Shown here in pieces: positions 46,428 through 56,800 of a stretch of 64,000 nucleotides of DNA (its first letter is position 1; every line of letters starts with the position of its first letter). The notes beneath the pieces were generated by a model. That model was given only the letters and a program-made list of their open reading frames with translations. It was not told the DNA's origin and ran no database searches. A program made the position numbers and the translations under genes. The DNA is from a virus (lineage: Duplodnaviria; Heunggongvirae; Uroviricota; Caudoviricetes), in IMG/VR virus record IMGVR_UViG_3300042554_002438. One strand, given 5' to 3'.

Positions 46428-48080
46428 TTATAAACTGTAAATTCCAAAAGGCGTAATTAAATAATCAATGATTTTATTTTTTAAATGAGTCATAGCTTCT
46501 TCGGGACGATTTACTATTGGCTCGTTATGAACATTAAATGAAGTATTTACCAAACAACCAAAACCTGTTTGATTTTTATAAGATTTCAAAATATGATAAA
46601 ATAATGGATTTGAATTTTTAGTTACAATTTGAATACGTGCCGTTTTGTCCACAGGATGGACAACAGTTGGTAACTTATCTTTCCATTCATCTCGTGTTTC
46701 AAAACATAATGTCATAAACTCAGCGGCATATCTAGATTTATTCACTATAAACAATCGATTAGCATCCTCATCTATTACTGCTGGCGCAAAAGGCATAAAA
46801 TCGTTACGTTGTAACTTATCATTAATTAATTTATAAGTTTCGGGGTGAGTGGCGTCACAAATAATACTTCTATTACCTAAAGCTCTAGGGCCGTGTTCAA
46901 ATTTGCCCTGAAATAATCCTAATATTTTTTTATTAAGTAATAAAACAGTAATAAAATCTATATTAAAAGGAATATAATTATATGTTCCTAAAATATTTTT
47001 TGCCGCTTCATCTACGTGTTCTTTATCATACTCATTCCCAAAAAACACATTATTTAATCTAAAAGGTTTAAAATCAGGATGAAGTTGTTTAATCGTTCCT
47101 AAAACACACCCTAAAGCTAACCCCTCATCACCCATTGGGGGGGCTATAAATACTTCATCCACCCATTCTAGTTCATTAATTAATTTATTCATTTTTACAT
47201 TAGCAAAAATACCTCCAGCCATTGCCACTTTTTTAACATGAGGATATTTTTGATGTAAATTATTAAGTATTTTTAAGATTTTTTCCTCAAATACTTTCTG
47301 TCCAGTATAAGCAATGTTTTTAATAGTTTCATGATTCTTCCAATATCGAGAACCCATTGATTTAAAAAAGTTTTGATAAGTTTTTAAAAAAACATTTCCC
47401 CCAGCTAAATCACTATCATCAGAAAAAGGTGAAATTTCTGTTTGAAGACCATCAATTTTAATAACTTCGTTAAAAGCATCATATATTTCAGGTATTAGTC
47501 CTCCATGCCCAGCCATACCCACTACTTTACCTTCATCTTTTAATCTTTTAAATCCTATTAATTCTGTAATAGCGGCATAAAATAGTCCTAAAGAATCTCT
47601 ATTTAATAAAATCCCATCGATATACTCTAAATTACCATTTTTACCTAAATAATACTTAGCTGAATGATTTTCTCCTGAACCATCAATAGCCACAACTAAT
47701 GTATCTTCTTGAAAGTTAGATAAGTAATATGCTGTATTAATATGAGAATCGTGGTGTTCGATTTTAATATATTTTTCTTTTTCTAAATTAAAATTAATGG
47801 TCATTTTAAAAATATCTCTGATTATTTCGTAATCGTAAAAACTAGTGAAATAATTTACTTTTCCTAAATCTACATCATGTTTAACTATTAATTCAGTAAG
47901 AGAAGCTAAAGGATATCTAAAATAATTATTTTCAAAATCTTTATAAGGTTTAATCCTATTTAATCTTTCTTCCTCTAAGACTACTTTTAAATCGCCATTT
48001 TCAAAATAAGCTAACCCACAGCTGTGAGAACCACCAATAATTCCTAATATTCGATAGGAAGAATTTTCGTACAATTTCAT
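46428..48080 (-). CDS. carbamoyltransferase (NodU/CmcH family)
   Basis: 550 aa; YRILGIIGGSHSCGLAYFENGDLKVVLEEERLNRIK N-terminus typical of NodU/HypF-type carbamoyltransferases. Confidence 0.7.
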   Translation of the reverse strand: MKLYENSSYRILGIIGGSHSCGLAYFENGDLKVVLEEERLNRIKPYKDFENNYFRYPLASLTELIVKHDVDLGKVNYFTSFYDYEIIRDIFKMTINFNLEKEKYIKIEHHDSHINTAYYLSNFQEDTLVVAIDGSGENHSAKYYLGKNGNLEYIDGILLNRDSLGLFYAAITELIGFKRLKDEGKVVGMAGHGGLIPEIYDAFNEVIKIDGLQTEISPFSDDSDLAGGNVFLKTYQNFFKSMGSRYWKNHETIKNIAYTGQKVFEEKILKILNNLHQKYPHVKKVAMAGGIFANVKMNKLINELEWVDEVFIAPPMGDEGLALGCVLGTIKQLHPDFKPFRLNNVFFGNEYDKEHVDEAAKNILGTYNYIPFNIDFITVLLLNKKILGLFQGKFEHGPRALGNRSIICDATHPETYKLINDKLQRNDFMPFAPAVIDEDANRLFIVNKSRYAAEFMTLCFETRDEWKDKLPTVVHPVDKTARIQIVTKNSNPLFYHILKSYKNQTGFGCLVNTSFNVHNEPIVNRPEEAMTHLKNKIIDYLITPFGIYSL

Positions 48081-48082
48081 AA

Positions 48083-48763
48083 TTAATCTAATTCTTTTAT
48101 AATTTCTTTTTTATTAAAATCATATTTCCACCAAGAATTTTCACCAGGTGTAGAAATGTATGACACATGAGTCATGTGCGCTTTTTTTACACACATTTGT
48201 TTATATTTATTTTGGTTTGTAATTCTGTTAGACCATTGAGCGTCAGTTGACGCGAGATATTGGGTGATGCCTTGAATATCGTTAGCGGCAATAGTGTGAT
48301 AAGGGTGTTCTAACCAAATGTGTCTCCTAATTCCAGTAAAAAACCAACCAGTAAACGACACTTCAAATTCATCTGGTAGGGCATCCATTTCATATGTTTT
48401 AAAAAATTTATTATATTTTTCCATCAAAGGAAGTTGCCCTCCCTGACAATGTATCCATTGTTTGCCTTGAGAATGAATTGTTGCTAAATAACTATTTTGC
48501 CTAACACACGACCACCCTGTAACTATTTCGTGTCTATGTAACGCTTCTTCTAAATAGGCAAAATTTTCAGGACTAATAATAACATCATCAGAAACAATAA
48601 AATAATTATCATAATTTGTTTCTTCAATGAAGGAAGGAATATGTGTATTGAGTTCATATTCCCTAAACCCCTTAAACCAAACTTTAGGGACTTTTAATTT
48701 TGAGATGGCGTGTTTTATGATTTCTTCATCTCTAACACTCATTATCATTAAACAATTTTTCAT
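48083..48763 (-). CDS. hypothetical protein, possible glycosyltransferase
   Basis: 226 aa; position within the sugar-modification cluster; weak GT-A-like features. Confidence 0.35.
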   Translation of the reverse strand: MKNCLMIMSVRDEEIIKHAISKLKVPKVWFKGFREYELNTHIPSFIEETNYDNYFIVSDDVIISPENFAYLEEALHRHEIVTGWSCVRQNSYLATIHSQGKQWIHCQGGQLPLMEKYNKFFKTYEMDALPDEFEVSFTGWFFTGIRRHIWLEHPYHTIAANDIQGITQYLASTDAQWSNRITNQNKYKQMCVKKAHMTHVSYISTPGENSWWKYDFNKKEIIKELD

Positions 48764-55123: not shown

Positions 55124-56164
55124 TTATTTATTATATCTGTTGAATGAGTTTTGCGATATTTCAATACACTCTGGCTTACCCACAAACTCATTCAAGTTAA
55201 GCGCATCGGTATAGCTCATAGCAGATTTAAGATAGTGTGAAAAATTTTCAACCCAACCTGGTATTGTATATTCAACTTTTTGTTTTTTGACAATACCCTC
55301 GGATGTTTTAATGTCACTCTTACCCCAATCTCTTTGAACCTCTTTGGTTGACATACCTCTGAATGATTTATACAACGGTATATCGCAATCCAAATAATTT
55401 CTGGCTATTTGCGAATATTGATCAATAATTTCACCACTATCATTTGTAGTTGTCCCAGAACTTTCCAAAGCCTTATTGAAAATAGAACCCAACATGACGT
55501 AATCCGCACCGAGTGCCAATGCTTTGATAACATCCGAATATTTTTTAAAGCCGCCGTCAGCAACAATTTTGGCTGGTTCCATTAATGTACACGATTCAGA
55601 ATATACTTCTCGAATCAGGGATGCCATAGGGAAACCGATACCAGTTTGTACGGTTGTTAAACAACCACCACCGTTACCAATACCAATTCTAACATAGTCA
55701 GCGCCAGCAATGGACAAATCAACATATGTTTGTGGGTTAGCAACATTTCCAGCCATTATAACTAGTTCGGAGCGGTATTTGTTTTTCGCTTCATTTACAG
55801 CATCTATCAAAGCTGGCATGTGCCCATTTGCCACATCAATCAAAGCATACATTGTTGCACCACGATTATAACTATCGGGTGTGTTTTGTAAAAAAATTTG
55901 TTTAAACTCAGTCAATCCATATGACCTCCAACAAACTGGTGATGTTGATATATCATCACTATAACTATGTGGTTTCCTAGGTAGGATTACCCTGATATGA
56001 TTATTAATAAAGAAATCAGCATTTTCATCACTAACCACAGTATCCATTGGTGCGGTAAAAATTGGCAACATATCCATATTGTCCAAAATCTCGATTTCGG
56101 ATCTGGTGTTGATTCTTGTTCTAACCGCAGGTTTAATCAGGATGTCATCAAAGTCAATTTTCAT
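55124..56164 (-). CDS. guaC: GMP reductase
   Basis: FDDILIKPAVRTRINTRSEIEI...APMDTVVS, IDVANGHMPALIDAVNEAK and GIGNGGGCLTTVQTGIGFPM collinear with E. coli GuaC. Confidence 0.8.
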   Translation of the reverse strand: MKIDFDDILIKPAVRTRINTRSEIEILDNMDMLPIFTAPMDTVVSDENADFFINNHIRVILPRKPHSYSDDISTSPVCWRSYGLTEFKQIFLQNTPDSYNRGATMYALIDVANGHMPALIDAVNEAKNKYRSELVIMAGNVANPQTYVDLSIAGADYVRIGIGNGGGCLTTVQTGIGFPMASLIREVYSESCTLMEPAKIVADGGFKKYSDVIKALALGADYVMLGSIFNKALESSGTTTNDSGEIIDQYSQIARNYLDCDIPLYKSFRGMSTKEVQRDWGKSDIKTSEGIVKKQKVEYTIPGWVENFSHYLKSAMSYTDALNLNEFVGKPECIEISQNSFNRYNK

Positions 56165-56191
56165 TCTTTTTCGTGTTTAATAAAAAATAAT

Positions 56192-56800
56192 TTATAAAAT
56201 ATAAAAGTCGTTTACTTCGTGCCTTCTAATTTTACGGTAACCAAATGAAGTTAAGTATTCTTCAATTTCGGGATCGTTAAAATTGTTTTCAATGCAAAAC
56301 AATCTGACATTCCATTTTGCGATATCAAAACCCTTTAAAACATTTAATTCCGTACCCTCGGTATCAATTGATATAAAATCGATACGATTTATCCAATTAA
56401 AATCAGAAATTATATTATCTAAAGTGCGTTCGGGTACTTTAATTACATTTATTTGCGGATTATAAATAGCATGAGATAAAATTAATCTTTCATCAATTTC
56501 CAACCCACTTATCGCCGTTTGGTTACCACCATCTAGAGTAACTACATTAAATTCTACTTCTTTATTATTATGTAACCCAACCGCACAATGAACTGTATTT
56601 GCACGATTTTGTTGAAGTAATGGAATCATTTTTGGATTGGCTTCCACACAAATACATTTCCAACCATTTTGTTCAAAATGATAAGTATTAGACAAATCTA
56701 TACCATCGGTAGCACCAATGTCTATACAAATACCTTTATATGTTGGGTCAAAATATTTAGCGATAAAAACATCTTCGCCAAATTGTGAATAAGAGTGCAT
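56192..56800 (-). CDS. FkbM-family methyltransferase
   Basis: SQFGEDVFIAKYF...GICIDIGATDG. Confidence 0.5.
   Translation of the reverse strand: MHSYSQFGEDVFIAKYFDPTYKGICIDIGATDGIDLSNTYHFEQNGWKCICVEANPKMIPLLQQNRANTVHCAVGLHNNKEVEFNVVTLDGGNQTAISGLEIDERLILSHAIYNPQINVIKVPERTLDNIISDFNWINRIDFISIDTEGTELNVLKGFDIAKWNVRLFCIENNFNDPEIEEYLTSFGYRKIRRHEVNDFYIL

Follow-up and report, generated by a model that had tools for sequence, protein, structure and literature searches.

For what purpose does a phage encode enzymes that build, transfer and decorate a sugar? The question is raised by ten co-directional genes on the minus strand (46023-53244) of a 64-kb window of viral DNA from the IMG/VR record IMGVR_UViG_3300042554_002438; all coordinates refer to positions 1-64,000 of this window. 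The genes, from a thioesterase gene to an open reading frame (ORF) for a 127-aa protein, lie no more than 59 nt apart or overlap by 4-8 nt, and are flanked by two terminator-like hairpins on the same strand: one upstream, between tRNA-Leu and the thioesterase start (53283-53310, a 12-bp stem followed by a T run), and one at the operon end (46009-46035, an 11-bp stem followed by a T run). Given this tight packing and the flanking hairpins, the ten genes are read as one transcription unit. Three helper genes lie away from the operon: a second FkbM-family methyltransferase gene (FkbM2; 56192-56800, minus strand), a GDP-mannose 4,6-dehydratase (Gmd) gene (61148-62134, plus strand) and a gene for a short-chain dehydrogenase/reductase (SDR; 62158-62958, plus strand). 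Operon and helpers probably form a phage-encoded cytoplasmic glycosylation system that makes and transfers a virenose- or noviose-like sugar.

The original prediction for this locus was a sugar or secondary-metabolite modification cluster at 46428-56800. The carbamoyltransferase, two FkbM methyltransferases, C-methyltransferase, thioesterase, Gmd and SDR that it named, with their positions, are all backed by strong Pfam matches, and the contiguous minus-strand set is confirmed, with operon bounds at 46023-53244. The range is right for the operon and FkbM2 but also takes in 53400-56190, which is not part of the set and holds tRNA genes, an unknown ORF and an IMP dehydrogenase (IMPDH)/GMP-reductase-like gene.

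Enzymes of the operon and its helpers

The Gmd-type enzyme (Pfam GDP_Man_Dehyd, 4.7e-118) scores 393.7 bits against the equivalog TIGR01472, which has a cut-off of 415. The C-methyltransferase (51041-52264, minus strand) is of the TylC3/TcaB9/MtmC type that acts on NDP-hexoses (Methyltransf_14, 1.2e-45; Methyltransf_23, 3.7e-12) and has the architecture of this family, namely an S-adenosyl-methionine (SAM)-binding domain and the C-terminal Methyltransf_14 domain. Its matches among PDB structures are MtmC (4rv9, 6.9e-43, residues 13-404) and TcaB9 (1e-31), with the HEH motif aligned, and it is 57% identical to a homologue in the phage LR756501 and 87% identical to one in L014 (L-numbers are our labels for loci on other contigs). 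The helper SDR is a short, divergent member of the extended type (Pfam Epimerase, 6.6e-8) with weak PDB matches to GMD and GDP-6-deoxy-mannose reductase; it contains the sequence SYIISK (YxxxK) and is a candidate for the 4-ketoreductase of the sugar route. It is 67% identical to a gene that lies two genes downstream of the GT9-like gene (see below) in L014, and 36% identical to one in LR756501.

Both FkbM-family proteins are SAM methyltransferases. FkbM1 (50416-51039, minus strand; Methyltransf_21, 4.1e-16) is a probable sugar O-methyltransferase, with homologues within the cassette of L014 and L028. FkbM2 (Methyltransf_21, 1.6e-23) is the version that usually adjoins the C-methyltransferase in other genomes: it is 53% identical to the FkbM protein encoded next to DUF4254 in LR756501 and 48-52% identical to FkbM genes adjoining or fused with the C-methyltransferase in L026 and L028.

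The carbamoyltransferase (46428-48080, minus strand) belongs to the NodU/CmcH/TobZ family of O-carbamoyltransferases that depend on ATP and carbamoyl phosphate. It has both domains of the family, the Kae1-like N-domain (Carbam_trans_N, 8.3e-35) and the YrdC-like C-domain (Carbam_trans_C, 8.9e-54), and matches phrog_1601 (1.6e-88). PDB matches are 7xb6 (1e-52, query 88-543), GdmN and NovN (query 19-542) and TobZ, the latter best over the C-terminal half (query 254-541). With 121 bits, the protein is far from the cut-off of 1000 for the equivalog NF041651, which describes NodU, the Nod-factor 6-O-carbamoyltransferase.

The first gene of the operon (52795-53244, minus strand) encodes a hotdog thioesterase of the 4HBT, YciA-like type (Pfam 4HBT, 1.3e-12; NCBIfam YciA, 3.7e-13, under its cut-off). 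Its ORF extends back to 53373, but the start is most likely M44 (53244), since other gene callers give 149 aa on identical contigs and the terminator-like hairpin falls inside the longer ORF. The protein is 55% identical to the product of a 4HBT gene in L017 that adjoins the TibC-half/GT-A gene pair described below, and the same neighbourhood is found in L037/L038. The second gene (52324-52791, minus strand) encodes a 155-aa protein of phage sugar islands that matches phrog_34507 (unknown function, 9e-28). The original prediction called it similar to GDPD (glycerophosphodiester phosphodiesterase), and one GenBank record labels a cyanophage homologue GDPD. This label has no support: there is no Pfam or NCBIfam match at E<=0.01 and no PDB sequence match, GDPD profiles and structures included, and a full GDPD barrel is longer than 155 aa. 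Homologues (33-47% identity) are found in 17 Synechococcus phage records, beside sugar-nucleotide genes. The 127-aa protein of the last gene (46023-46406, minus strand) has no Pfam match and is found only in near-identical contigs; its gene is followed by the terminator-like hairpin.

The block at 48083-50412 had been described as uncharacterised putative glycosyltransferases. This is true for two of its four proteins, a GT9-like protein with GT-B fold and a GT-A fold protein, and not for the other two, a probably non-catalytic TibC-half protein and a DUF4254 protein. Comparison of the three unannotated ORFs (49436-50161, 48760-49443 and 48083-48763) with PDB, by single sequence and by profile, returned nothing usable.

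The GT9-like protein (49436-50161, minus strand) is compact (241 aa) and is assigned from its predicted fold and an N-terminal motif. Its AlphaFold (AF2) model has a predicted local distance difference test score (pLDDT) of 91.2, and the top Foldseek matches in PDB are the GT9 protein 3tov, WaaC, WaaF and TibC (E ~6e-6, TMq ~0.6); the best eleven are all GT9 or TibC. G11-D12 of the N-terminal 'LGD' motif is invariant in 19 homologues, and the catalytic Asp of WaaC and TibC occupies this motif position (PMC4358343). The gene upstream (50158-50412, minus strand) encodes the 84-aa DUF4254 protein (Pfam DUF4254, 1.5e-9), the constant partner of the C-methyltransferase and the GT9-like gene; we found essentially no literature on DUF4254.

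The TibC-half protein (48760-49443, minus strand; 227 aa, or 212 aa from an alternative ATG start) corresponds to the N-terminal beta-barrel and N-lobe of the TibC/Aah protein O-heptosyltransferases. It matches TIGR04414 at 1.4e-6 with 27.5 bits (cut-off 200), and hhalign aligns it to the TibC family with 99.2% probability (E 2.8e-19; query 13-222 to template 20-199 of 392). There is only a handful of close homologues, and an exhaustive profile search extends to proteins of 370-1700 aa; all 13 distant relatives tested match TIGR04414 at E<=1e-5, the best at 9.9e-115, and one of them, P0053, reaches 264.7 bits, above the cut-off of 200. The domain limits of TibC, its catalytic Asp110, its donor-binding C-lobe and its Cys4 iron finger are known (PMC4358343). 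The TibC-half protein ends at the inter-lobe linker and has neither the C-lobe nor the four iron-finger cysteines, and its homologues have E, T or E at the position aligned with Asp110; for these reasons the protein is probably non-catalytic.

The gene that always adjoins the TibC-half gene, and overlaps it by 4 nt in the window, encodes a 226-aa protein (48083-48763, minus strand) with a predicted GT-A fold (AF2 model, pLDDT 79.6) and no Pfam family match. Foldseek matches in PDB are STIV A197, Mimivirus R699, GalNAc-T, KfiA and WrtF; those in BFVD are many phage and giant-virus GT-A proteins (E 3e-8), GT-A/FkbM fusions among them. S58-D59-D60, a DxD-type motif, is invariant after the strand 53-57. 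The possibility that the TibC-half protein and this protein are one divided TibC-like GT-B enzyme was rejected, as the latter has a GT-A fold and no TibC-family profile similarity. Judged by their models, the GT9-like and the GT-A protein are two active-looking glycosyltransferases. The reading of the locus as a sugar-decorating set is therefore upheld: Gmd, a TylC3-type C-methyltransferase and an SDR are a recognisable nucleotide-sugar route, and the two transferases come in addition.

Two modules and their neighbourhoods in other genomes

Six of the proteins (C-methyltransferase, DUF4254, GT9-like, FkbM, Gmd and short SDR), less often with the 155-aa protein, recur together as a cassette that we call module B. 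Besides the window, 69 IMG/VR viral loci with a DUF4254 homologue were surveyed: 64 of the 69 have the C-methyltransferase, 60 a Gmd-like gene, 34 an FkbM2-like gene and 33 a GT9-like gene, while the short SDR (12/69) and the 155-aa protein (10/69) are rarer. In 30 of the 33 loci with both genes, the GT9-like gene begins 241-262 nt past the start of the DUF4254 match, and thus lies directly downstream of DUF4254. The carbamoyltransferase, the GT-A/TibC-half pair and the thioesterase are found in none of the 69 loci. Recurrent neighbours are DegT aminotransferase, GT1/4, GT2, sugar nucleotidyltransferase, a thiamine pyrophosphate (TPP) enzyme and T4-like gp43, gp46 and UvsX. FkbM2, Gmd and the short SDR, distant from the operon in the window, are syntenic with the cassette in other genomes and are for this reason counted in the set, as the original prediction had done.

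The cassette is also found in LR756501, in L014 and in contigs binned into bacterial metagenome-assembled genomes (MAGs). LR756501 shares the C-methyltransferase (57%), FkbM (53%), DUF4254 (61%) and the short SDR (36%) with the window, and a paralogue of its C-methyltransferase has the N-terminal zinc domain Methyltransf_13. Positions 7502-27756 of this 735-kb phage (L001) are a large glycan cluster with two C-methyltransferases, a radical SAM/SPASM enzyme, a split TPP-dependent E1-like enzyme, DUF1848, GT2, Fringe-like and STELLO-like transferases and a NusG-like gene. One of these, L026, was binned into a Methylococcaceae MAG and encodes two neighbouring fusion proteins: one of 906 aa (5276-7996) that joins an unknown domain to FkbM and the C-methyltransferase, and a TPR-GT41-NodZ/O-FucT protein of 1117 aa (1445-4798). 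Here the same branched-sugar cassette may serve bacterial protein glycosylation. In a contig binned into a Chlamydiae MAG, gmd-DUF4254-C-methyltransferase adjoins tig and clpX.

Module A is the TibC-half/GT-A pair, always adjacent, with or without the thioesterase and carbamoyltransferase. Outside the window lineage the pair lies between QueE and FolE, phosphoribosyltransferase or MazG-like genes of T4-like aquatic phages, often with a nuclease, 4HBT thioesterase or carbamoyltransferase alongside; in L036 a 550-aa carbamoyltransferase is its sole companion. Eight of the loci (L002, L017, L018-L022 and L037) contain genes for QueC, thioredoxin, QueD, QueE, a phosphoribosyltransferase, GTP cyclohydrolase I and a MazG-like protein, and in L022 DNA polymerase B follows directly. 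The TGT/DpdA family is absent among the precomputed or scanned annotations of these loci, in which some ORFs are unannotated, and the phosphoribosyltransferase hints at a nucleotide-level (toyocamycin-like) 7-deazapurine route. None of 80 loci with closely related QueC has the pair (these are the best 80, all marine relatives, and do not include the 298.7-kb contig described in the last section). This marks the pair as an accessory insert within a variable region, not as a preQ0 pathway component, and weakens the idea that it forms an integral part of that pathway. Beta_helix_4 proteins encoded near the pair in L036 and L002 were considered as acceptors and rejected: they are lipoprotein-like (a hydrophobic stretch at the N-terminus and then a Cys), and no window protein is homologous to them. 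Modules A and B are joined in one operon only in the window lineage.

The proposed pathway and its acceptor

From the gene identities and folds, the operon layout and the two-module origin, we infer the order of the steps, the donor and the acceptor. Going by family membership, Gmd would convert GDP-mannose of the host to GDP-4-keto-6-deoxymannose, the TylC3-type enzyme would add a methyl branch, most likely at C3, and the short SDR would reduce the 4-keto group to yield a GDP-6-deoxy-C-methyl-hexose. This follows the logic of virenose, for which a GDP route from Gmd via a 3-C-methyltransferase to a reductase has been proposed (PMC3539893). The GT9-like enzyme would then transfer the branched sugar, together with DUF4254, whose strict adjacency suggests a partner of the GT9-like enzyme or of the C-methyltransferase. 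The GT-A enzyme may attach a further sugar, with the presumably dead TibC-half protein, again judged by strict adjacency, probably serving as its acceptor-recognition or scaffold subunit. FkbM1 and FkbM2 would O-methylate the glycan and the carbamoyltransferase would O-carbamoylate it, as in noviose.

Among acceptors we tentatively rank first a protein synthesised in the course of infection and most likely belonging to the virion. Four observations favour a protein: the TibC/Aah family is specific for proteins (PMC4358343), the cassette lies beside a GT41-type fusion in the Methylococcaceae MAG contig, all enzymes are soluble, and there are viral precedents, among them the glycosylation of virions by phage-encoded transferases in mycobacteriophages (Freeman et al. 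2023, as cited in PMC12619734). Solubility is indicated by a hydrophobicity scan, which found no membrane-like segment in any protein of the cluster (threshold: mean Kyte-Doolittle value of 1.6 over 19 residues).

Several points weigh against this reading. The Gmd score is slightly under the TIGR01472 cut-off, and the substrate could therefore be another GDP-sugar, for example GDP-heptose. The C-methyltransferase has no match to Methyltransf_13, its alignment beginning only at residue 24-34 of the solved enzymes, and its methylation site is not readable from sequence. The GT9-like protein has no Pfam or NCBIfam match and an hhalign probability of 1.8% against the TibC family, so that its assignment is one of predicted fold and one motif. 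No acceptor was identified and no structural gene adjoins the operon; the scheme assigns no step to the thioesterase, the 155-aa protein, DUF4254 or the 127-aa protein; and a protein glycan does not account for the presence of module A amid preQ0 genes of other phages.

A close rival, because of the GT9 fold and of localised divergence between strains, is a glycolipid at the cytoplasmic face of the host membrane, such as the core of lipopolysaccharide (LPS). The decorated branched sugar would be added to lipid-linked LPS core, O-antigen or capsule precursors, perhaps to block superinfection or to prevent progeny from adsorbing to debris; we regard such a remodelling of the host envelope as possible but doubtful. 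The LPS inner core is the classical substrate of GT9 enzymes, a point in favour of a host glycolipid, and the closest structural relatives of the GT9-like protein are the LPS heptosyltransferases WaaC and WaaF along with a GT9 protein. Cyanophages and pelagiphages carry homologous sets interspersed with sugar genes whose annotation is of capsule or LPS type. Two patches of the operon, 48106-49305 (the GT-A/TibC-half pair) and 51400-52600 (the N-terminal part of the C-methyltransferase and the 155-aa gene, in comparison with L009), differ by ~5-10% of nucleotides between strains that are nearly identical elsewhere along ~14.4 kb of alignment; this suggests allele exchange or diversifying selection and is expected of surface-specificity genes. 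The NusG-like gene of the LR756501 cluster points in the same direction, as Bacteroides capsule loci carry a NusG-like gene. However, Pfam annotation and the hydrophobicity scan show no priming transferase, flippase, polymerase, ligase, ABC exporter or lipid-carrier gene in the operon, and no membrane segments. The cassette also moves among very different viruses and bacteria, which demands a widely conserved acceptor, and the TibC-half domain is a member of a protein-glycosylating family.

Less probable still, and in our view unlikely, is that the modification is one of DNA or nucleotides. Here, the pair and the carbamoyltransferase would modify a non-canonical base such as 5-hydroxymethylcytosine (5hmC) or a 7-deazaguanine derivative, with module B supplying the sugar donor. 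Pair homologues with 45-51% identity are the ones found among the preQ0 genes of L002, L017, L018-L022 and L037, nucleases adjoin in L002 and L017-L021, and the DNA polymerase B gene of L022 has been mentioned. A point against this reading is that, to our knowledge, no C-methyl-branched or O-methylated sugar is known on DNA. Phage GT-A enzymes that glycosylate DNA bases exist (bioRxiv 10.1101/2023.12.21.572611), and a phage-encoded carbamoyltransferase of the same two-domain family makes 5-carbamoyloxymethylcytosine (Yang et al. 2021, PMC8670742). The window enzyme is, however, just 25% identical to this 5hmC carbamoyltransferase. The latter co-occurs with thymidylate-synthase homologues, whereas the window enzyme has sugar enzymes and glycosyltransferases as neighbours, the context also reported for carbamoyltransferases on unmodified contigs (PMC8670742). 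Nor does the literature that we consulted present the carbamoylation and methylation of deoxy-sugars as a feature of DNA hypermodification, as had been suggested: the known phage DNA carbamoylation sits on the base 5hmC and not on a sugar (PMC8670742). No match to the thymidylate-synthase-like, 5mYOX, DpdA, QueC/D/E or FolE families was found in the operon or in the scanned window ORFs (42 further ORFs in a batch, mostly >=120 aa, and others singly, within 64 kb of a ~300-kb genome). The 80 marine QueC loci devoid of the pair argue in the same direction; and since module-B loci too adjoin gp43, gp46 and UvsX, proximity to replication genes is generic in such genomes.

That the operon tailors the sugar of a diffusible small molecule during infection, for example an antibiotic-like glycoside or a nucleoside analogue, is very improbable: C-methyltransferase, O-methyltransferase, carbamoyltransferase and ketoreductase do make up the noviose set of novobiocin, the PDB relatives NovN, GdmN, TobZ, MtmC and TcaB9 are natural-product enzymes and a thioesterase is encoded, but aglycone-building genes (polyketide synthase, nonribosomal peptide synthetase, prenyl or aminocoumarin enzymes) are absent both from the operon and from related loci, and the cassette is widespread in large phage contigs of lytic type with several glycosyltransferases. 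A secondary metabolite, one of the initial suggestions, is the least likely reading: in viral genomes the cassette travels with glycosyltransferases, and it has no scaffold-building genes.

Genome setting and likeness to known systems

The window is phage-like, with a G+C content of ~35% and 27 tRNA genes. It shares 15 kb at 100% identity with a lake metagenome contig (JGI 3300042475 Ga0453895_0000002, 298,717 bp), in which it occupies about positions 229,225-293,224, and is therefore a piece of a ~300-kb phage genome. By megablast, no GenBank phage is closely related to the region; gene by gene, the nearest annotated relatives are in the "huge phages" LR7565xx (462-735 kb) and in Lak phages. 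Going by its relatives, the phage probably infects a member of the Bacteroidota. Also encoded are a Thg1-like enzyme, a CCA-adding enzyme, an RNA ligase, an endolysin and genes for NAD and purine salvage.

The sugar genes are interleaved with a large region of tRNA supply and repair. The tRNA genes (42681-60404) include all four of the queuosine family (His, Tyr, Asp and Asn), and tRNA-His is immediately adjoined by the Thg1-like gene. This gene, a CCA-adding enzyme fused to a HAD domain, an RNA ligase, RlaP and SmpB are located at 43683-44525, 38522-40606, 27811-29193 and 34366-35460. Three ORFs that overlap tRNA genes, 54528-54848 (minus strand), 57716-57958 and 60251-60691 (both plus strand), are almost certainly not genes. 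The IMPDH/GMP-reductase-family gene (55124-56164), between the tRNA cluster and FkbM2, has 42-50% identity to huge-phage genes and 33% to Lak-phage genes, and is probably outside the sugar set. An adenylosuccinate-synthetase-like gene (10295-11320) is short (341 aa) and closest to LR756501 (43%), its best cellular matches being bacterial PurA (37%); a protein with a MazZ-type dATP/dGTP diphosphohydrolase N-domain is encoded at 29911-30702. The two are reminiscent of the PurZ/MazZ route to 2-aminoadenine DNA, with the caveats of the PurA resemblance and of the 19 kb between them. Further genes encode a tyrosinase-like protein (6469-7920), a 620-aa SPFH-domain protein (11810-13672), a nicotinate/nicotinamide phosphoribosyltransferase (13998-15527), a ferritin-like protein (19865-20500) and a PfkB-family sugar kinase (20546-21325).

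Phage sugar islands with a Nol-like carbamoyltransferase are already known from cyanophage and pelagiphage genomes. In the glycan or 'LPS-like' islands of T4-like cyanophages and pelagiphages (for example S-SCSM1, S-SSM7, HTVC008M and Bellamy) and of huge phages (LR756501), as in the window, this carbamoyltransferase clusters with nucleotide-sugar epimerases and dehydratases, methyltransferases and a number of glycosyltransferases; the cluster lies in a variable region that is frequently close to tRNA genes. We found no paper that establishes the function of such an island by experiment. In contrast to these islands, one operon of the window combines two sets: the C-methyltransferase/DUF4254/GT9-like cassette, and the TibC-half/GT-A pair together with thioesterase and carbamoyltransferase. 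Two things appear to be new: a branched-sugar cassette that is widespread and contains DUF4254 and a minimal GT9-like enzyme, and the fusion of this cassette with the TibC-half/GT-A pair in one operon.

In novobiocin, noviose is tailored by the C-methyltransferase NovU, the reductase NovS, the O-methyltransferase NovP and the carbamoyltransferase NovN; it is dTDP-based and is attached to the aminocoumarin by a GT1 enzyme. The window shares the C-methylation, O-methylation and O-carbamoylation of a 6-deoxyhexose, and NovN is among the PDB relatives of its carbamoyltransferase. Unlike the noviose pathway, it has a Gmd-type entry enzyme, FkbM-type O-methyltransferases, and GT9-like and GT-A transferases. 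Chloroviruses carry Gmd, and like the window, giant viruses (chlorovirus, mimivirus) and mycobacteriophages have their own sugar-nucleotide enzymes, soluble GT-A transferases and methyltransferases. In contrast to these systems, no glycosylated protein is known for the window phage, and we know of no description of a branched C-methyl sugar or of carbamoylation in giant-virus or mycobacteriophage glycosylation. The TibC/Aah autotransporter heptosyltransferases (BAHT) resemble the window in two proteins: the TibC-half protein aligns to their beta-barrel and N-lobe, and the GT9-like protein also matches TibC structurally. However, no single window protein has the full BAHT architecture, and the TibC-half protein is paired with a GT-A enzyme. 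Virenose, a 6-deoxy-3-C-methyl-hexose of Coxiella burnetii LPS, has a GDP route that is itself an in-silico proposal (PMC3539893); the phage reductase is a short divergent SDR.

A bolder reading, which we consider rather unlikely, is that the Gmd/C-methyltransferase/DUF4254/GT9-like cassette of the 69 viral contigs is an undescribed virus-borne system that puts a branched C-methyl deoxy-sugar on a macromolecule that many viruses share (virion proteins or DNA), combined here with a two-subunit transferase (dead TibC-half for recognition, GT-A for catalysis) and a carbamoyltransferase. If this is so, the work of module-A genes next to preQ0 genes elsewhere would point to a macromolecule with a glycosyl or carbamoyl decoration that has yet to be reported from phages.

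Islands of sugar genes are common in large aquatic phages, and as far as we found their targets were never determined. The operon is a compact and nearly complete example, with entry enzyme, branching methyltransferase, reductase, two active-looking transferases and decorating enzymes, and its core cassette is common to at least 69 viral contigs and some bacteria. It suggests a route to an unusual branched sugar that can be put to the test and supplies DUF4254 with a definite partner in the genome. It is also an example from nature of a truncated domain of a protein glycosyltransferase that is paired with a catalytic fold to which it is unrelated. The identity of the acceptor would tell whether the phage coats its particles, changes the host surface or modifies DNA, each of which affects host range and resistance to host defences.

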